64,000 bases of DNA from Curvularia clavata (GCA_023920165.1 CP089281.1:1-64000); one strand, 5' to 3'. Counted from the stretch's first letter, positions 3,101-50,017 are shown. Made by a program: numbers and translations. Notes: a model not told the origin generated them from the sequence alone.

Positions 3101-3210
3101 CCGAACCACGCGCAATAAAACCAAGTATCTAGTTAAATAGTTAGAATACGATAATAGTAAAAATATATAGGAACTAGAGGACAATTTTAGCAATTGTTAA
3201 AAGACATTAC

Positions 3211-3419
3211 TGTCAGGACCTGGTCCAAATTGGGACATGTTGGTCCAATTCCCTCCTTCTTCACGCTAGTTAGTCAGCTAGGGCTTACCTAAGGCTATAA
3301 AGCCTCCACGATCGCTAGAGGTGCTCGATAGCGATTCGTCTCGTGAATACATGGCTGTTAAAGCATAGTTCTCTCTCATCTATCTCGTGCTGTACCTTCA
3401 CGCCACTAACAGTCTAACA
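3211..3419 (+). repeat. 5' LTR of inner element
   Basis: TGTCAGG...TCTAACA, identical to 10333-10541; TATAAA at 3296. Confidence 0.97.
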
Positions 3420-3451
3420 TTCGAATCGCTCTCCTCAAGTACACCTACGAG

Positions 3452-4684
3452 ATGTCAGAGAGAGCCATGCCGAACCCAGGTAGTCGCCAAACTCGGAGCC
3501 GCCCAAGGTCAACTCGAAACACGGTAGTAGGGGACTCACAGCCCACTCTAACTAGAGACTCAACCCAGCCATCTTCAAGTGAACTATCCGAGCCTGCCGT
3601 CACGGAGGCAGATCAGGCCGAACTGGCACAGAGAAGCCCAATTCAGGGCAGCCCAGCTCGACTTGAACCACCTCAGACCACCATTGCTCAACAGCTAGAC
3701 GAACTGCGCGCTTGGAGGCAACGAGCGCTTGACGAGCAAGAACTGAAACGTCTCCAGGAAATCAAGCGTCGGTTCGACCAAGGTGACACGACAGCACTGA
3801 CAGAGGACCTATATGAACCACACCGTGCGGTGGGGATACAACTAGAACCAAACGTGGGAGCTCCACGACCAGAAAAACCAACACAGTTCACAAGCCGCGA
3901 TCGTGCCGAGTACAATCGCTGGGAACGCGAATGTGAGGCAACGTTTAGGGGAAGCCCTAAAACGTTCCAAACAGAGGCAGTCAAGATCGATTTTGGGCTT
4001 AGGTATATCACTGACCCCCTACGCTCCACATGGGACGCCTATCATCACGACTACTGTAGAAAAGACACGAATTGGACACCCACGTGGCTAGACCTGAAGA
4101 CTGTAATGGTGGATTCACTGGGACCACCAGAACAGCGGAAGCTTGAAGCCCACCGAGCTCTCAAACACATCAGACAGGACTGGTCTCAGGACCCAAACGA
4201 CCTGTTGGCCAAATTGGACACACTTTGGTCCGAATTGGGCAATGCCTACTCGGAAGAGCAGAGAGTGAGGGACTTTATGGGCGCTTTGACAATGACAATA
4301 CAGAAAGAGTTGCTTTTACTCGAACCAGGTCAAAGAAGCACAATCTCAGACCTAAACGCGCGAGCGCGACTTATCTGGGACAGAACGAAAAGAGAGAAGC
4401 CTAGCAACGCTAGAACAACGCAGAACAAGCAAGCCAGGAGCGGCACACCACCAAAGAACACAAGAGGGTACGAAAAAACCCTGAAAAAACAAAGACGGAA
4501 CCCTGCGGATACAAAAGGTTCATACGCGGCAAACAAGGTTCGAGGACGCGACGCAGAGGGCAAAATTGTCTGTTACAACTGCGGGGAACCCGGACACATC
4601 AGCAGGAACTGTAGTAAGCACAAACAAAGCCAAGCGGCACCTGAGGAACCCAAACTGGAAAAAGGCAAGGGGCGGAGAACCTAG
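3452..4684 (+). CDS. gag: Gag protein (410 aa) with CCHC zinc knuckle
   Basis: CYNCGEPGHISRNC knuckle; ORF directly after the 5' LTR. Confidence 0.93.
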   Translation: MSERAMPNPGSRQTRSRPRSTRNTVVGDSQPTLTRDSTQPSSSELSEPAVTEADQAELAQRSPIQGSPARLEPPQTTIAQQLDELRAWRQRALDEQELKRLQEIKRRFDQGDTTALTEDLYEPHRAVGIQLEPNVGAPRPEKPTQFTSRDRAEYNRWERECEATFRGSPKTFQTEAVKIDFGLRYITDPLRSTWDAYHHDYCRKDTNWTPTWLDLKTVMVDSLGPPEQRKLEAHRALKHIRQDWSQDPNDLLAKLDTLWSELGNAYSEEQRVRDFMGALTMTIQKELLLLEPGQRSTISDLNARARLIWDRTKREKPSNARTTQNKQARSGTPPKNTRGYEKTLKKQRRNPADTKGSYAANKVRGRDAEGKIVCYNCGEPGHISRNCSKHKQSQAAPEEPKLEKGKGRRT

Positions 4685-4702
4685 TAGCCCTACTCTCCGC
4701 CC
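4657..4702 (+). promoter_or_regulatory. Putative -1 ribosomal frameshift signal
   Basis: G GAA AAA heptamer in the gag frame (4657-4663), 6-nt spacer, then stem GGGCGGAGA (4670-4678) / TCTCCGCCC (4694-4702). The pol frame is -1 and open from 4645. Confidence 0.75.
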
Positions 4703-4731
4703 ATATTGCAAGGCTAGAGCTAGAAGAGGAC

Positions 4732-7700
4732 TTGAAGACACTTCGCGAAGCAATGTTCAGCAAACCTAGCCCTCTATTGACCATAACGGTGCAAATTGGC
4801 CAAGATCCACTCGAAGCGCTGATAGATGGAGGGTCTCAACTAAATCTACTCTCAATCCACCAAGCCAAGGATCACGATTTAACAATAACTCCTATACCGA
4901 ACTTAGTGGCAGAAGCCTTAAGCGGCGCGGAGTTTGAGATTTATGGCACTACAGAGGTGACCATGAAAGTCACAGACACAAGAGGGAGGACTAAAGTCCA
5001 GAATATACCTTTTGTGGTGACAGAAATGAAGCATTACCCAGTATGCTTAGGTATGCCCTGGGTCGACTTCTACAAGCCCAAAATAAGCCTCCGGTCGCGT
5101 CGAGTGCTATTTAGGGGCGTGAAATATGTAGATAGGGCTTCATATGAGAAAATCGCGACAGAAAGCGCCGAAGAGTTTGAGAAAACACTCCGAACGCCCA
5201 CGACGGACGTTTACGCGCTCAAAGTGTCCACTGTGATGGGTTGGGACCCAAGCGACGAGGAAGAGGACTGGGAGGGGTTGGAGAAGCCCAAGAACGCCCA
5301 GGTTGGCCCTGATCAAGCCAAGTTGCCTCAGTTGCCACCACAGTACGAGGACTTTGCGGATTTGGCCTCGGAAGAGGATGCCAAGTGCCTTGCTGAGCAT
5401 GGCCCGCACGATTTGGTGATAACCTTGAAAGAAGGCACCACGCCACCACATCAGCCGCTATATGGGCTCTCGAAGAGCGAGTTAGCGCTACTCCGGGATT
5501 ACTTGCGTGAGTATCTCGCGAGAGGGTGGATTAGACATTCGAAGTCGCCAGCAGGCGCACCAATACTCTTCGCGAAGAAGAAAGACGGCACGATGAGGTT
5601 ATGTGTGGACTATAGAGGTCTAAACAACATAACGCTCAAAAACCGTCACCCTTTACCCTTGATTACGGAGTCCTTGGATAGATTGGCTGAGGCAAAATTC
5701 TATACCAAGCTAGACGTCCGAGAAGCATATCATAGGGTGAGGATTAAGGAGGGAGACGAGTGGAAGACAGCCTTCCGCACCAGATACGGCCATTTCGAGT
5801 ATACTGTGATGCCTTTTGGCCTTACAAACGCTCCTGCACAATTTCAGGCGTACATACACCATATCCTTGCAGGATTGGTAGATGTGAGTTGTATTGTGTA
5901 TTTGGACGATATCCTGGTGTTCTCCAACACAGAAGAGGAGCACGAGAGACACGTGCGCGAAGTCTTAAACAGATTGCGCGAAGCCAAGCTGTATTTGAAG
6001 ACTTCGAAGTGTGAATGGCACACCCAACACACTGAGTTCCTTGGCTACACAGTTAGCCCCGAGGGTATAAGTATCGACCCAGATCGGGCCAAAACGGCCC
6101 AAGAATGGCCAGAACCGCGTACAGTGCGCGATGTCCGCGTGTTTCTAGGCTTCATGAACTACTATCGTCGATTCATTGCTAACTTCTCCAGAATCGCACT
6201 GCCTTTAACTGAGTTACTGAAAAAGGAGCCGAACGCCGCCAAAGGGGGCAAAGCTCAGCGAAAAGAGGAAAGCGTACTGCTAATTCTAGACGAAAACGCC
6301 AAGAGCGCGTTTAAGACGCTAAAAAACTCCTTTACGGCAGTACCTATCCTAACCCACTTTAATCCAGACAATCAGACTAGAGTACAGGTCGATGCGTCGG
6401 GAGGAGCGATTGCTGGCATCCTAAGCCAGTACGTGCCCAAAGAGGCTTGCTGGAGACCCGTAGACTTCTACTCGCGCAAATTAATCGCCGCGGAGTACAA
6501 CTATGACACGCATGACCAAGAGCTACTAGCTATCGTCGCTAGTCTCCAACACTGGCGAAGATATCTTGATGGGATACACTTTGATCTAATTACTGACCAT
6601 CGAAACCTGAAGTGGTTCATGGAAACCAAAACACTGAATCACCGCCAGGTACGGTCTTACTTAGCCCTATCAGGTTTTGATTTCACAATTGTACACCAAC
6701 CTGGGAAAACAAACCCCGCCGACGGCCCATCGCGCAGACCCGACTACATAAAAGCCGCCCAAGAGCCAAAGCAGAAGAATAATAGCGCATATGTGCCATC
6801 GCTACGCCATCTGCTCAAATTCAATGCCGAAGGGACTGCTATAGCTGCAGCTACCACCACACGATCACAAGGACGGCAGAATACAGCAGCGAAGCAACAT
6901 GAAGACCAGAGGCATGCAGCATTGGCTCAAGAGGCCGACTCAGAGACGGACGAATACACTTCGGACTCATGTAGCTCAGAAGAAGACGACGTGGCCAAAC
7001 CAAGTCCACAAAGGCTCAAACAGGGCCACTCTGGCCCAACCGTGCCCAAGACGGCACAGGAAAAAGCAGCAGCATTAAAACAAGGTCACGACGACCCGCT
7101 TTCTGGACATTTCGGCGCAAGACGCACATTAGAGAAACTAACGCGCCACTACAAGTGGGCTGGCATGAGGAAAGACGTGGAAGACTACTGCAAATCATGC
7201 CTTATCTGTCAAAAATCTACCCCGAAACGGCACCTGCCATACGGGCCCCTTGCACCATTACCACCACCCAATAGAGCCTGGGAGGAAGTAACAATGGACT
7301 TTATAACTGAATTGCCACCAAGCAAACTGCAAGGCGTAGTATACGACGCAATCCTCGTGATAGTCGACAGACTGACCAAAATGGCCCATTACGTGCCAGC
7401 ACGGTCCAATTGGGACGGAGTAGACCTAGCTCAGGCATGGTTGCGCGAAGTAATCCGTCTCCATGGCGTACCACGCCGAATCATATCAGATAGAGGCCCT
7501 TTAATGAACTCCACCCATTGGAAGACCTTTCTTCACTACCTTAACTCGAAACGTGTACTTACTTCGGCATACCACCCACAAACAGATGGCCAGACTGAAC
7601 GCCAAAATCAGACTCTAGAACAGTACCTCCGCTGCTACTGTTCCCTAGAGCAGGACGACTGGGCATTATGGATCTCAGTAGGGGAATACGCGTACAATGA

Positions 7701-8385
7701 CAGTGTACATTCGACTACCAAGGTCACCCCCTTCCAAGCATGCAACGGCATACACCCAAGAGGCGCAGAATGGCCCAAAGACGCCCAAACTGGGGGCGAA
7801 AACCCCCTAGCGGCAAGTACTGCCTCAAGAATAATCGAAATACAACAAGAGTGCAAGAACAATATTCTAAAAGCGCAAGAGTACCAAAAACGGCACGCAG
7901 ATAAGAAAAGACAACCCATTCCTTTTAAGGTAGGGGATAAAGTACTGCTATCTAATAAGCATATTAAATCCCTGCGACCAAAGAAGAAGATCGACTGGAA
8001 ATACGTTGGCCCAGGCACAATAACTGAGCAAATCGGCCCATCAGCATTTAAAGTAGATATGCCTGGCCTAAAAAACGTACACCCAGTGTTCCATGCATCC
8101 TTACTAGAGCAGTATCACCCCCCAGGTGATATACCACATCCTGAAGTCCCAACACAACACGAACTAGGCGAGACAGGCGACGATGTCTACCTCGTGGACA
8201 AAATAGTGGGACATAGGAAGAACAAGGACGATCAGTGGGAATACTTAGTGAAATGGACTGGATACCCCGACTCTGAAAACACATGGGAGCCAGCCGCCAA
8301 TGTTACCCAGAAAACGCTTCAAGAGTTCTGGAACAAATCAAATCAGGTCCCTCGACGCAGACGCGGGCCAAAACGGGCCAAATAG
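4732..8385 (+). CDS. pol: Pol polyprotein (protease, RT, RNase H, integrase, chromodomain); frame open from 4645
   Basis: ALIDGGS protease, YLDD RT, VDASG RNase H, H-H-C-C zinc finger, SDRG/TAYHPQTDGQTE integrase, YLVKWTGY..NTWEP chromodomain. Confidence 0.97.
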   Translation: MKTLREAMFSKPSPLLTITVQIGQDPLEALIDGGSQLNLLSIHQAKDHDLTITPIPNLVAEALSGAEFEIYGTTEVTMKVTDTRGRTKVQNIPFVVTEMKHYPVCLGMPWVDFYKPKISLRSRRVLFRGVKYVDRASYEKIATESAEEFEKTLRTPTTDVYALKVSTVMGWDPSDEEEDWEGLEKPKNAQVGPDQAKLPQLPPQYEDFADLASEEDAKCLAEHGPHDLVITLKEGTTPPHQPLYGLSKSELALLRDYLREYLARGWIRHSKSPAGAPILFAKKKDGTMRLCVDYRGLNNITLKNRHPLPLITESLDRLAEAKFYTKLDVREAYHRVRIKEGDEWKTAFRTRYGHFEYTVMPFGLTNAPAQFQAYIHHILAGLVDVSCIVYLDDILVFSNTEEEHERHVREVLNRLREAKLYLKTSKCEWHTQHTEFLGYTVSPEGISIDPDRAKTAQEWPEPRTVRDVRVFLGFMNYYRRFIANFSRIALPLTELLKKEPNAAKGGKAQRKEESVLLILDENAKSAFKTLKNSFTAVPILTHFNPDNQTRVQVDASGGAIAGILSQYVPKEACWRPVDFYSRKLIAAEYNYDTHDQELLAIVASLQHWRRYLDGIHFDLITDHRNLKWFMETKTLNHRQVRSYLALSGFDFTIVHQPGKTNPADGPSRRPDYIKAAQEPKQKNNSAYVPSLRHLLKFNAEGTAIAAATTTRSQGRQNTAAKQHEDQRHAALAQEADSETDEYTSDSCSSEEDDVAKPSPQRLKQGHSGPTVPKTAQEKAAALKQGHDDPLSGHFGARRTLEKLTRHYKWAGMRKDVEDYCKSCLICQKSTPKRHLPYGPLAPLPPPNRAWEEVTMDFITELPPSKLQGVVYDAILVIVDRLTKMAHYVPARSNWDGVDLAQAWLREVIRLHGVPRRIISDRGPLMNSTHWKTFLHYLNSKRVLTSAYHPQTDGQTERQNQTLEQYLRCYCSLEQDDWALWISVGEYAYNDSVHSTTKVTPFQACNGIHPRGAEWPKDAQTGGENPLAASTASRIIEIQQECKNNILKAQEYQKRHADKKRQPIPFKVGDKVLLSNKHIKSLRPKKKIDWKYVGPGTITEQIGPSAFKVDMPGLKNVHPVFHASLLEQYHPPGDIPHPEVPTQHELGETGDDVYLVDKIVGHRKNKDDQWEYLVKWTGYPDSENTWEPAANVTQKTLQEFWNKSNQVPRRRRGPKRAK

Positions 8386-8673
8386 GGCCAATAGGAGCCA
8401 AATTAGCACATGTACCTTCACCTACTTTTTTCCCCAAAGGGTTTTATAGGTGTTTAACGGCATAAGCTGATTAGGGCAACCTGGCCCAAATTGGTCCATG
8501 TTGAACTGACATTGCACAACAAAAACCAAGGAATGGAAAAGTAAAGAAAAGAGAATTTCAATTATCACCTCCATCCTAATGCCCTGGGTATCTCATATGA
8601 AAGGGAAGAAAACCACCATAGCCCATACTGACCCAATTTGGGCCAAAACGGACAAAACTAGACCCAACCACCC

Positions 8674-9739
8674 TTAATCACCGGCAACTGCGGCCTCGTA
8701 CTCCTTGTTAAGCCTTGCCTTGGCTTTTTCCAAGTTCTTGATGTCATTGGTGATCTTCCTCTTGGCTTGACCCTTGGCCCCCTCCTTCTCAGACATTTTT
8801 TGCAAAATCTCTTCATCAATGTCATTGATGCGCTTCTGAAGCTCATCAGTGACATCCTCGGCAACCTTGACCTAAAGAACCAAGTTAGTCCAAATTGGGG
8901 CAATTTGGCGTAAATAGGGGGGAAAAGGATCACAAACCTCCTTCTTGCGCCCACCAGAGCCATACTTGGACTTCTTGACCCTTGCCTCGACCAAAGTTTC
9001 CACCTCGATCTCATGAGCCTTCCTCTTGACCTCTTCATCCTTCTTGGAGCGGCCAAGGGCAGAAGTCTTCACACCAGAGCGGGGATCATCTTCCTCCTCG
9101 ATGGCACCAGAGGAAAGAGACAGATGAGTAGCATGAGGCTCAAACCTACACAAATTAGTCCAATTTGGGCCAGATTTAGGAAAATTGGATCACTTACTTC
9201 TTGAGTGACTCAACAATAGGCTTGCTGAACATACTAAGCCTAGTAACGGCCACCTCGTACATTTCCCTGCGCTCAGCACGAACTTCAGCCTCATTGGCAC
9301 CCTCGGGGATATCTTTGTCAATGGCATGGAAGGCATCCTCAACCTTCCCAATGAGCTGGCCAAGTCTCACCCAGTCGGGGGAGAACTTGTCGGGAGGAGG
9401 CACCTAACCACTCATTTAGCTCCAAATTGGACCAAATCAGAGCAAAACAGGGCAACTTACCGCAAAACAGACACGGTTGATGTAAGAGCAGCGAAGACAC
9501 TTCATCACCTGCCTAGGCATACCGCCAGACTCCGGTTCAACCTTGTAGCCAGACCAAGCCTCAGCTACCTCAGGATTGTCGATGTCCAACATAACGCAAC
9601 CCGCTCTGCCAAAAGTAACGGGCTCATTATCCCTGAAGGCGTTCAGACAGCACACACAAGCGTAGTAAGACCTCTGGCCCTTGCGTACGAACAGGTTTGA
9701 CACCGTACTGCGGTTGACGGATCCAAGTGCGTTCGTCAT
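8674..9739 (-). CDS. Antisense four-exon gene inside the retrotransposon (about 296 aa; Cys-rich N-terminus, charged coiled-coil-like C-terminus)
   Basis: Exons 9739-9461, 9403-9198, 9145-8938 and 8871-8674 splice in frame across GT..AG introns of 57, 52 and 66 nt with branch sites GCTAAAT, ACTAAT and GACTAAC. Confidence 0.8.
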
Positions 9740-10332
9740 GGTTCAAGTGGGTCTTGAAGGCCCCAATTTGGGGGTGTTTGGGACGAATCGGTCGAATCTG
9801 TCGCGAAATGGATCGTATGGGAGGGAACAGCCTAAAAAGAAAAGTCAGCAGAAAACTCCAAGTCCAGGGGAAGAACCTCAGAAAAAGGCAACAAAACCAA
9901 GGTCGACTGCAAACTGGCCCAAATTGGGCCAAACTGTTGCAAACAGACCGTGGGTGGAAGGTGTCGGGCCCAAACTGAGAAGACCCACAAAATGGGAGTC
10001 TACTTACCAAAGTGGGGTTGGTGGACTGTGGGGTGTACTGGGCTTAGTCAAAAACTGGCTATTGTATCCCTGGATCCGCACTAAATTAGCGCGTCACGTG
10101 ACTCTTGGCGCTGCCCAGGAGTACCCTGATGGGCCGGGTTGGCCCAAAGTGGGGCAGTCGGCTAGGCAGCAGCGCAAAACTCCGCTATTATGACGTCATA
10201 GCCCTGGGGCGGTGAGCAAGTAAAATACACCCTCCAACCCACACGGCGGCATCACCCAGTAATCGCTCAAACTGGGCGGCAAGCATGATAAGTTGCGCAG
10301 CTGGGACAGCTGCACCCTAAGAAGGGAGGTAT

Positions 10333-10541
10333 TGTCAGGACCTGGTCCAAATTGGGACATGTTGGTCCAATTCCCTCCTTCTTCACGCTAGTTAGTCAGC
10401 TAGGGCTTACCTAAGGCTATAAAGCCTCCACGATCGCTAGAGGTGCTCGATAGCGATTCGTCTCGTGAATACATGGCTGTTAAAGCATAGTTCTCTCTCA
10501 TCTATCTCGTGCTGTACCTTCACGCCACTAACAGTCTAACA
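10333..10541 (+). repeat. 3' LTR of inner element
   Basis: Identical to 3211-3419. Confidence 0.97.
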
Positions 10542-10569
10542 ATTACAAAACTATAAAAAGAACTTACTA

Positions 10570-46824: not shown

Positions 46825-49800
46825 ATGTCTGTTTTCCGTAGCATGAGAGTGTTAGGATTATTTCTCGCTTCATGTGCGCTGTGGCTGCCTACGACTCATG
46901 CACTATTGGAAGAAAAGTTTGTGAGTTTTACTGCTGAGAATGAATCTTTAGACATCGCTCGAGCTACGATTGTAGCTGATGCGGGGGATTACGTTGGTGT
47001 GCACATCGCATTGAAGAGCTTGGCAGACGATTTCAAGCAGATCACAGGGACCCAGCCAGTTCTTCGAAATCACACTGTTAATTCGACAAGACTTGTTGCT
47101 ACAAGTGGAATCATAGTGGGTTCCGTGAGCTCAGCACTGATCCGAGATCTCTCGGCTCGTGGTATTGTAGATATATCAGACATAGTGGGGAAGTGGGAGG
47201 TTTTCAAAACTGCAGTCGTTGAAAGTCCGCTCCCTGGAGTAGACAGGGCACTTGTCGTTACAGGAAGCGACAAGCGTGGGTCGATTTTCGGCATTCATAC
47301 ACTGGCCGAACAAAGCGGTCAATCTCCGTATGTCAAATTCATGTATGGATTAGCTCCAGTTAACAATCGCAACTAGGTATCACTGGTTTTCTGATGTCCC
47401 AGCAAAGAAACACTCCGCAATCTATGCACTCTCGAAATCAACTGTTCATGGACCGCCTACTATCAAGTACCGAGGACTGTTCATCAACGATGAGGAGCCC
47501 GCACTACAAACGTGGTGGAGCACACAGCACAATGCTTCGCATTATCCACTCAATAAGGAGTTTTATGCGCATGTCTTTGACTTGCTTCTTCGTCTCAAGG
47601 CCAATTACCTATGGCCGGCCATGTGGGCATCATCAACGCCAGCTCCCGGCAATATCTTCTTCACTGACGATCCAGGCAACATGCAACTTGCTAACGATTA
47701 CGGTATCGTCATTTCTACCAGCCATCATGAGCCTATGCAAAGGGCTACAAACGAGTGGAATGCCTCCGAGACTGGGCCCTGGGACTGGAGGCTCAACAAA
47801 GACAATGTGACGCGTTTCATGGAAGAAGGTATTCGTCGAATGGGCAATACTGAGAGTTATGTAACATTAGGAATGCGAGGTCCTAGCGATAGCGCCATAG
47901 TCGGCGATGATGCTATTGCAATTCTCAAGGAGGTTTTCGAAGTTGAGAGAGACATCTTCAAGAAGGTTCTTGGCGATCAGAAAGTGGATCGTACGATATT
48001 CCTTCACAATTATGAAGATCTTGATGCTAACCAGATGACAGAGGTTTGGACAATCTACAAAGAGGTTGCTACATACTACGCCGCAGGCCTTAGCCCACCG
48101 GACGATGTTACCATCATCATGCCGGATGACAACCAAGGCCAAGTCCAAAGGCTTCCGACAGGAAATGAAAGCGCAAGAGTGGGCGGTGTTGGCGTTTATT
48201 TCCACTTTGAATACTTCGGGACCCCAAGATCATATAAGTGGTCGAATAGCAACAATCTTGTAAGTGCTTAATCCTGCCTCTACCCATCAGATACCTAACT
48301 TCGGTAGCCGAAAGTCTTGAAAGAGCTCTTACAAGCCTATTGGCGCGATGCAAACCGTATTTGGGTAATTAATGTAGGCGATATTAAGCCTATAGAGCTC
48401 CCATTCGGATTTGCAATGGATTTAGCATGGAATGCCACCGGGTTCGACTTTGACATAATACCGACATATTTGTATCTTTACTCAGAGCGCGAGTTTGGCA
48501 CCGACCACGCAGGAGACATTGCACTGTTACTGATGGAGTTCAGTAATCTTGTTGGTATGCGGAGATTCGAAATGGTTCATCCTGGAACATATTCGGTCCT
48601 TAATTACCACGAGGCCGAGAGGGTGTTAGCAAGGTGGACAACACTTGCTGATCAAACCACGGCTCTATACGAAATCATTCCAGATGACTACAAGCCTGCA
48701 TTTTATGAGCTTGTTTTCTACCCGCTGGTGTCCGGTGCTACATACTATGCCGTTAACCTAGGAATAGCCTTCAACCAGCAACACGCCATGGAGCGTCGAA
48801 ACTCTGCTAATGCTCTCGCACAAAAAGTGCTCGATGATTTCGACTACGATTATGATCTGGTCGAAAGATTTGACGCTCTTCTAGGGGGGAAGTGGAAACA
48901 TATCATGTCACAAGCGAAGCTCGATGCTGTTGTCCAGCAACCACGAAATTGGGCCAATCCGTCGCGAGACATGGTTACAAATCTTTCGTTTGTACAACTA
49001 CGCCAAAACATGCAATTCTCCATAGGCAACCTCGGTATCTATCCTGAAGAGTCTACCAGTCCTATCAACCAAGGACGATGGGCTGAATCAATCGATCTAT
49101 CGATGCCGACGGTCGGATACCCTGCGTTAATGCCATTGATGGATCCATATGGTCCTACGATAAGAACAGTTGACCTCTTCATGAGGGGTGATTATCGCAT
49201 TCCTATCAACTGGACGCTTGATGAAATTCCAGTCGACTGGCTGTCAATTACACCGTGTGCGGGAGTTCTCCACAAAGAAAAATACGAACAGCGTCTGAAT
49301 GTCACGATTGACTGGACTAAGGTCCCAGAAGGTTATAACAAGACCATCAATGTAGGCGTTAGATCAACTCCAGCTCCATATCCGTATTTTGATCTTATAC
49401 GGATACCGGTACGGAACCAGAAAGTTCCAGCCAGCTTTGTAGGCTTCCCAGAGACAGCGGGGTATATCTCGATCGAAGGTCCGCATTTTCAACGATCGTC
49501 ACCTGCAGCACCCAACACTACATCCAATGCCACTGTTGCATTTAGCCGCATACCTTACCTCGGCACGCGGACTGAGTCTGGTTCTATCGCCCTCCGCCCA
49601 TATACAGCCTCCCGGGCTTCGCTTTCATCCTCCACAGCAGCTTACGCTGAATACGACATTTATCTTTTCAATCGCACTTCTGGGCTCAATGCGACTGTCT
49701 ACATTAATGCTTGTCTGGACACCGATCCTAATCTCCTCATGAAATTCTCGCTTAGCTTAGATGGAGCCGCTCAGAATTTTACACGTGTACTAGGCAATCC

Positions 49801-50017
49801 AAAAAATGCAGGAGATGTACCCCCAGAGTGGATGAGCGATGTTCCGAATCAAGTATGGACAAAAAGGATAGCACTTGGAGCGGCAGAAAAGGGTAAGCAT
49901 ACCCTAAGATGGAGTGTGAACAGCCCTGAGGTATACCTAGAGAAGATTGTGTTGGATACGCAGGGTGGTGTTAAGGAGAGCTATCTAGGACCACCGGAAA
50001 CAAAGATGGTAGATTGA
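46825..50017 (+). CDS. Glycoside hydrolase family 115 (xylan alpha-glucuronidase-like), spliced
   Basis: Signal peptide; GSDKRG, KYRGLFINDE, LLLRLKANYLWPAMW, SHHEPM, TLGMRG, NVGDIKP. Introns near 47328-47377 and 48261-48313, possibly also near 48.0 kb. Confidence 0.93.

Follow-up and report, generated by a model that had tools for sequence, protein, structure and literature searches.

The stretch of DNA analysed here comprises 64,000 nucleotides of Curvularia clavata (GCA_023920165.1, CP089281.1:1-64000; hereafter the window) and carries a single copy of a long terminal repeat (LTR) retrotransposon, a Ty3/gypsy chromovirus, at positions 3211-10541. Between the stop of its pol frame at 8385 and its 3' LTR at 10333 lie 1947 nt without a sense-strand gene. 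An earlier note on this DNA had placed a spliced antisense gene in this interval, which it gave as about 1.9 kb, and had called the element intact; our measurements agree on both. The gene, on the minus strand at 8674-9739, falls wholly within this interval and has the position of an antisense additional open reading frame (ORF) of the aORF-3R kind. As a whole, the evidence is best explained by a genuine spliced, four-exon, protein-coding antisense gene of a young and intact chromovirus, a reading in which we place considerable confidence. The gene is real and conserved, and very probably it is also expressed and spliced.

The gene model starts at 9739, with an ATG whose context is good (A at -3). 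Exon 1 (9461-9739; 279 nt, 93 codons), which is supported by the spliced frame and by homologues, encodes a domain with six cysteines. It is followed by intron 1 (9404-9460; 57 nt, GTAAGT..CTAAA..TAG, phase 0), which is shared with a related metagenome contig, L001, and holds one or two copies of a palindromic motif described below. Exon 2 (9198-9403; 206 nt) is helical, with 15 of 53 aligned residues identical to L001, and intron 2 (9146-9197; 52 nt, GTAAGT..CTAAT..TAG, phase 2), again shared with L001, has one motif copy. Exon 3 (8938-9145; 208 nt), which aligns to L001 and to an Alternaria protein, P0002, carries an F/Y-x-P..L-x-L-x-SGA stretch, an acidic patch and two basic clusters. Intron 3 (8872-8937; 66 nt, GTTTGT..CTAAC..TAG, phase 0) has two motif copies and is the one removed in an RNA-library contig. 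Exon 4 (8674-8871; 65 codons and TAA) encodes a helical tail rich in lysine and glutamate that aligns to the tail of P0002. The branch-point words CTAAA, CTAAT and CTAAC are of fungal type and stand 8-15 nt before the acceptors. The joined exons amount to 891 nt and read through 296 codons without interruption to the terminal stop. A 3' untranslated region (UTR) probably extends over 8386-8673, since the spliced RNA-library contig reaches 8639; it has motif copies at 8374-8390, 8482-8498 and 8629-8645. The 5' UTR and a presumed promoter of the gene's own would lie in 9740-10318, with motif copies at 9759-9775, 9915-9931 and 10140-10156. Upstream of the start codon there are also GTAAGT...AG stretches, at 9975-10010 on the minus strand of the window and at 1316-1345 of L001, which could be 5'-UTR introns; the candidate in the window is only about 33 nt long, too short for a typical fungal intron. 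The exon and intron coordinates of the earlier note were all right, if each of its junctions is read as the last base and the first base of consecutive exons. Its product of about 296 residues, joined in frame over three short GT-AG introns, its quoted residues CVCC and KCLRCSYINRVC (both in exon 1), and its description of the protein as K/E-rich (33 E and 30 K among 296 residues) were likewise borne out.

Without splicing, each of the three frames is closed by stops, so the ORF list shows the gene only as four fragments of 101, 69, 105 and 65 codons, as had been remarked from the outset. If no gene existed here, the open fragments and the GT..AG pairs between them would be a product of chance, an explanation for which nothing speaks beyond the missing annotation. 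We compared the region with dinucleotide shuffles (n=200) of its 1066 nt, in each of which as many as three GT..AG introns of 45-80 nt could be removed. None of the 200 shuffles reached 891 coding nt; their median was 510 and their maximum 786. Together with the homologues, the conserved intron positions and the spliced contig reported below, this already refutes chance, to which we assign practically no probability. A strict fungal-intron pattern had 52 matches in 128 kb (both strands of the window). Between 8300 and 10400 it matched five times on the minus strand and not once on the plus strand, and among the five, three are the introns of the gene model, one uses another donor for intron 1, and one falls within exon 1. 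The plus-strand ORFs at 9209-9700, 9669-10193 and 8914-9204 had no Pfam match, and we take them as shadows of the minus-strand gene. Introns that lie antisense read CT..AC on the genomic RNA and cannot be spliced there; they pass through retrotransposition because the genomic RNA carries their reverse complement. The earlier note had made this argument for the survival of the introns, and we judge it sound as established knowledge that should also apply to the present element.

Next, we turned to public sequencing runs. Those holding part of the stretch came to seven rows from six studies, and contigs of four runs were examined (X1, X2, X3 and X6); X3, a metatranscriptome, is the only one of the four recorded as RNA. 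Record 7 of X3 (depth 4.1) fits 8639-8873, and its 25 loose letters match 8940-8964 at 23 of 25 positions, both differences being transitions. Because 8872-8873 and 8938-8939 both read CT, the record joins 8871 to 8938, the predicted junction of exon 4 and exon 3. Record 8 fits 9578-9632, and its 29 loose letters match 9689-9717 at 26 positions. It skips 9633-9688, a stretch of 56 nt inside exon 1 whose ends read GT..AG when taken on the minus strand but not on the plus strand. Such splicing, which breaks the frame and deletes the first C-x2-C, is probably minor or aberrant, and the copy concerned is slightly changed by repeat-induced point mutation (RIP). The skip also points to a minus-strand transcript. 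One further RNA-library contig covers 9688-9917, with its strand undefined. Pieces of the element at least 99% identical to the window (8300-10541) were present in all four runs, from four studies; the sources include two metagenomes, one of wastewater and one of roots, and two coded organisms. Parts of the stretch that the contigs leave uncovered carry no weight either way. Over 9591-9691 the X1 copy is heavily RIP-mutated, with three cysteine codons lost.

To find homologues, we searched 1.84 billion representative proteins exhaustively with phmmer, using exon 1 as query (E≤0.001). Of the seven matches, one (P0004) was set aside as a repeat protein, which aligned in nine separate stretches; the other six are true relatives, with identities of 30-47%. 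Five of the six relatives are ORFs of 92-104 residues from metagenomes or run assemblies, and the closest, at 47% identity, comes from a metagenome. The sixth, P0002, is a gene model of 309 residues from Alternaria gaisen annotated as a hypothetical protein. A profile search with the alignment of the relatives added two shorter ones, P0011 and P0012. Longer homologues were not found with the exon 1 query, nor with the alignment query over proteins of 542-2000 residues. All nine aligned sequences share the six cysteines (C28, C31, C48, C81, C84 and C91) as well as N15, G44, G47, R83 and A93. All seven relatives called as ORFs (P0001, P0003, P0005, P0006, P0007, P0009 and P0010) read 'A-V' past the last cysteine, because these ORFs run on into the GT donor at the same place. 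In pairwise BLASTP comparisons, P0002 aligned to exon 3 over residues 187-232 (E=0.002) and to exon 4 with its tail, residues 250-306 (E=0.013); exon 2 gave no alignment with it. Judged from these alignments, P0002 is colinear with the spliced product.

A metagenome search returned a single related locus, the 2189-nt contig L001; viral contigs held none, and two matches of 16 residues in prokaryote genome contigs (L002 and L003) were judged to be chance. The polypurine tract and the LTR start of L001 align to those of the window, and the gene lies about 730 nt inside the LTR on the opposite strand, compared with 594 nt here. Intron 1 of L001 (62 nt, phase 0) follows codon 93 at the aligned position, and the first 13 nt of this intron are identical in the two elements. 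Intron 2 (57 nt, phase 2) interrupts the codon that aligns to the split codon of the window. The joined exons of L001 give 166 codons without a stop, and 67 of these 166 residues (about 40%) are identical to the window protein. By this alignment, frame, intron positions and phases are plainly kept between the two. The NG86 method gave dN 0.61 and dS 1.75, and the ratio of 0.35 is rough because this dS is saturated. The comparison indicates that the gene is under purifying selection in related elements, and the gene is retained in the one related locus whose context could be read. The earlier note had staked its proposal in part on the frame and the splice sites being conserved in related elements, and the frame and two of the splice sites are kept in this sample of one. 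The homologues it had called for exist, as six true relatives and one related element with readable context; the dN/dS of this single pair, rough as it is, points towards constraint.

These comparisons bear on whether the transcript could have no role but that of an RNA, which would pair with the genomic RNA and feed or block RNA silencing, with the reading frame incidental. Parts of PMC7264820 discuss antisense transcripts of LTR elements in roles of this sort, the gene overlaps no sense coding sequence, and a role of the RNA may coexist with one of the protein. As the full explanation, however, it is contradicted by conservation at the protein level (30-47% identity with six invariant cysteines), by the intron phases kept in L001, its 166 codons without a stop and the dN/dS of 0.35, and by the colinear Alternaria gene model; we consider it improbable. 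Equally improbable, in our estimate, is that a host gene was captured once by transduction and rides as a passenger without a role in the life of the element. Transduction is known for retroelements according to parts of PMC7264820, and the annotation of A. gaisen lists P0002, on a 351-kb contig, as an ordinary hypothetical protein. However, the place and orientation of the gene are unchanged in L001, where it lies beside a conserved polypurine tract and LTR start and encodes a protein that is only 40% identical. Any capture must therefore be old and retained. Moreover, both family members whose context is known, the window and L001, lie inside elements, and the element-specific motif fills the introns and UTRs of the gene. 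A protein-coding gene that belongs to the element thus remains the preferred reading.

The predicted product has a mass of 33 kDa and a pI of 7.5. Its cysteines in exon 1 are spaced C28-x2-C31-x16-C48-x32-C81-x2-C84-x6-C91, and in all nine sequences of the family the pattern is C-x2-C-x16-C-x30-34-C-x2-C-x6-C. This domain is plausibly, and we think probably, zinc-binding. A structure model of it, obtained as the earlier note had suggested, shows a small alpha/beta unit with both C-x2-C pairs at helix starts (predicted local distance difference test score, pLDDT, 73.9); it matched no solved fold (Foldseek best E=3.1; VIA-align best Z=2.2). A search of the PDB by sequence also gave no match, and its best entry, the PHD finger of Pygopus, was not used at E=3. 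The Pfam zinc families, including Zn_clus and DUF3716, matched none of the nine members at E≤10, a result to be read with the proviso that HMMER filters may drop very weak matches; an assignment to DUF3716 (PF12511) was rejected on this ground. Six cysteines, a second half of the form C-x2-C-x6-C and a helical region behind them could suggest a transcription factor of the Gal4-type Zn(II)2Cys6 class (PF00172). The consensus spacing of that class is C-x2-C-x6-C-x5-12-C-x2-C-x6-8-C, from which the pattern seen in 9 of 9 sequences departs. With no Zn_clus match, no fold match for the model and no CGG triplets in the repeated motif, we regard membership in this class as very improbable, more so than either of the two alternatives above.

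All of the antisense protein behind its cysteine domain is helical. Here, the F/Y-x-P...L-x-L-x-SGA stretch of exon 3 is common to the window, L001 and Alternaria, and the two basic clusters in the same exon look like nuclear localisation signals. The exon 4 tail aligns to a part of P0002 that is modelled as a confident helix hairpin (residues 246-306, pLDDT 86-97). A sub-threshold Pfam match of exon 4 to Seryl_tRNA_N (E=0.0018) fits such a hairpin. A prediction of the exon 4 peptide as a two-copy complex scored 0.00 with the verdict 'no answer' and is uninformative on oligomerisation. Pfam scans of the four exons and of P0002 found no bZIP family. Matches in the Protein Atlas, at best 0.76 for P0002 and 0.92 for P0008 to bacterial hypothetical clusters (152 shared features), were at chance level and were left unused.

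The element also carries a motif of its own, the palindrome TGGCCCAAATTGGGCCA. Because its matches are often paired 10 bp apart, it can alternatively be read as a tandem unit of 10 bp, TGGSCCAAAT. The core CCAAWTTGG has ten exact occurrences in the window, where 0.34 are expected, and all ten are inside the element. Two are in the U3 part of the LTRs (3225 and 10347), one in gag (4209), two in the 3' UTR of the antisense gene (8486 and 8633), and one in each of its introns, just before the branch point (8890, 9160 and 9422). The remaining two are in the 5' UTR (9763) and upstream of the gene (9919), the latter within a perfect 17-bp palindrome at 9915-9931. A matrix built from nine instances matched at 12 bits or more 14 times in the element (span 3221-10359) and not once in the other 56.7 kb. 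Three tandem units run across the pol stop at 8364-8390. In L001, matches of at least 8 bits numbered six against 0.45 expected, a count reached by none of 300 shuffles; they span 1109-2096 and include both introns and the upstream region. The RNA of the introns folds weakly better than shuffles (z -1.4 to -2.5, and -0.3 in one case), and values so weak lend no support to a reading of the introns as structured RNAs. The stretch 8620-8655 had a fold z of -5.2. In the literature, we found the 9-mer core in unrelated contexts only and the 15-mer in none.

Several observations weigh against the reading of a spliced gene whose product acts on its own element. The X3 contigs have depths of 2-4. The loose end of record 7 was matched by eye, extends 27 letters past the junction and yields no joint in the automatic listing. 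The X3 copy carries RIP-like transitions, and four of the five listed in the coding part are non-synonymous. Contigs of X1 and X2 are unspliced through intron 3 and one of X6 through intron 2; they may represent DNA, genomic RNA or pre-mRNA. Of the junctions by which the earlier note had proposed to recognise splicing, the one at 8938/8871 is thus present in one RNA-library contig, and the contigs of the other three runs read through introns. Conservation in the context of an element comes from one related locus, L001, at a saturated synonymous distance. The exon 1 domain lacks the matches to solved structures and zinc families given above, and nothing but the pattern of its cysteines suggests that it binds zinc or nucleic acid. 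On one strand the motif includes a CCAAT box, to which a host factor could bind, it forms small RNA hairpins, and it is tied to the protein by co-occurrence alone.

A mechanism can be sketched as follows. From the 1.9-kb interval that separates pol from the 3' LTR, transcription of the minus strand very probably yields an RNA spliced at three short fungal introns, which are inherited through retrotransposition as their reverse complement in the genomic RNA. The predicted product consists of an N-terminal domain of 93 residues with six cysteines, a helical middle with acidic and basic, nuclear localisation-like clusters, and a C-terminal helix hairpin. The protein might then enter the nucleus and bind nucleic acid of its own element, most likely at the TGGSCCAAAT units; this step is tentative, and we put it clearly below an even chance. 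Once bound, it might adjust the transcription of both strands or the element's chromatin. As the binder of the motif we favour the six-cysteine protein that the element itself encodes, a guess that is somewhat more doubtful. Still less likely, in our view, is a self-contained circuit in which the protein is a sequence-specific binder of TGGSCCAAAT and the element encodes both the factor and its dispersed sites. Through sites in the LTR U3, the upstream region, the UTRs and the introns, such a circuit could set the element's own transcription or shield it from heterochromatin at the chromosome end. The introns, conserved in sequence between elements whose proteins are 40% identical, would then persist because they house sites.

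The element that carries the gene is flanked by a target-site duplication (TSD), ATTAC, with identical copies at 3206-3210 and 10542-10546. Its 5' LTR (3211-3419, plus strand; 209 nt, TG..CA) has a TATAAA at 3296 and the motif at 3221-3237, and the 3' LTR (10333-10541, plus strand), with the motif at 10343-10359, is identical to it at 209 of 209 positions. The gag frame (3452-4684, plus strand; 410 codons from the first ATG) encodes a CCHC zinc knuckle (Pfam zf-CCHC, E=1.8e-8). The pol frame (4645-8385, plus strand; 1246 residues) is in the -1 frame relative to gag and overlaps it by 40 nt, and both frames are open. By Pfam, pol encodes protease, reverse transcriptase (RVT_1, E=6.8e-38), RNase H (RT_RNaseH, E=9.7e-31), integrase (Integrase_H2C2, E=5.4e-19), SH3 and a chromodomain (Chromo, E=9.3e-17). 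The domain order protease-reverse transcriptase-RNase H-integrase with a C-terminal chromodomain assigns the element to the Ty3/gypsy chromoviruses, and its ends have the features of these elements: TG..CA LTRs, a 5-bp target duplication and a polypurine tract, AAGAAGGGAGG, at 10319-10329 on the plus strand, which is kept along with the LTR start in L001. The G+C content is 50%, and the element lacks a RIP signature (TpA/ApT 0.96; (CpA+TpG)/(ApC+GpT) 1.15), which both of its flanks show (1.46/0.60 and 1.42/0.81 for the two indices). Because the LTRs are identical, the TSD is present, gag and pol are open and a RIP signature is absent, the element is a recent insertion of an apparently competent chromovirus.

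A TGG-type tRNA primer site was not found after the 5' LTR. The place expected for it, 2 nt past this LTR, is occupied on the plus strand by 3422-3433, which pairs at 11 of 12 bases with the LTR-internal stretch 3327-3338, about 30 nt downstream of the TATAAA at 3296, and which may be a primer-binding site of the self-priming type. The pairing presumably resembles the self-priming arrangement of Tf1 in fission yeast. Telomere repeats (CCCTAA units) at 28-183 mark the start of the window, so that the element lies about 3 kb from a chromosome end. A clean element between strongly RIP-like flanks near a telomere would fit insertion into heterochromatin guided by the chromodomain. The window is otherwise an ordinary subtelomere of a filamentous fungus, with genes for a helix-loop-helix (HLH) factor, a major facilitator superfamily (MFS) transporter, and NmrA-like, WSC, GH115, radical-SAM and fungal-kinase proteins. 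The GH115 glycoside hydrolase appears in two adjacent plus-strand frames, 47354-48271 and 48308-50017, which are probably one gene with a short intron.

Genes in this position have been met before. The closest precedent appears to be brtn of the Botrytis Boty elements, reportedly described by Zhao et al. in 2011 (Virology 417:248). Like our element, Boty is a fungal Ty3/gypsy chromodomain element with an extra antisense gene between pol and the 3' LTR that annotation has missed, as far as the available portions of the sources go. The likeness is one of layout: none of the seven matches of our exhaustive search, nor any match of the profile search, is named BRTN. Antisense ORFs between pol and the 3' LTR are listed in parts of PMC7264820 for maize Grande, rice RIRE2, Silene Retand and Phaseolus PvRetro13, and also for Boty of Botrytis cinerea and Sclerotinia sclerotiorum, with Zhao et al. 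2011 cited for brtn. Excerpts of other papers state that brtn is missing from the current B05.10 annotation (PMC8365987), mention a Boty-like element with 'brtn-106' (PMC4227169) and report a Monilinia transcript similar to BRTN (PMC5987419). By analogy, brtn and the antisense ORFs of plants may be regarded as counterparts of our fungal gene.

The plant ORFs (Grande gene23, RIRE2, Retand/TRP28 and PvRetro13) are similar in position, orientation and conservation within families, in predictions of a nuclear or DNA-binding role and, for Grande, in having a promoter of their own, so far as the portions of the sources at hand describe them. A 2025 survey, in the parts available, found antisense ORFs with a TRP28 domain in 97% of Retand clusters and suggested DNA binding (PMC11963269). 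Unlike our gene, the plant ORFs belong to non-chromovirus lineages and encode unrelated proteins (TRP28, SMC-like) with no Pfam family in common, and the word 'intron' has 0 occurrences in the text of PMC11963269. HBZ of human T-lymphotropic virus type 1 (HTLV-1), to which passages of PMC7264820 and PMC11963269 refer, is likewise a spliced antisense gene, located at the 3' end of an element that replicates by reverse transcription. Its intron can be spliced since it is antisense to the genomic RNA, and the gene encodes a nuclear regulator that dimerises through a helical region. In contrast, HBZ belongs to the bZIP proteins and its transcription is driven by the 3' LTR, and no bZIP match was found here. 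A six-cysteine spliced antisense gene in fungal chromoviruses was not found in the literature, besides the citations of brtn. The layout is therefore already known, and the value of the present case is an intact copy of such a gene in an intact young element, together with a candidate cis-target.

LTR retrotransposons of plants were recognised more than 20 years ago to carry extra genes in antisense, and those of one fungal family followed in 2011; none of these genes has an established function. Spliced ones are missed through repeat masking and through views limited to ORFs. The copy in C. clavata is unusually favourable for experiments, as the element looks active, with identical LTRs, no RIP and open frames. 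Since the gene and the sense coding sequences do not overlap, it can be mutated without touching gag-pol, its introns provide a ready marker of expression in antisense, and the sharply defined, element-specific DNA motif is a concrete candidate target. If the protein does bind this motif, fungal retrotransposons, like complex retroviruses, would encode regulators of their own.

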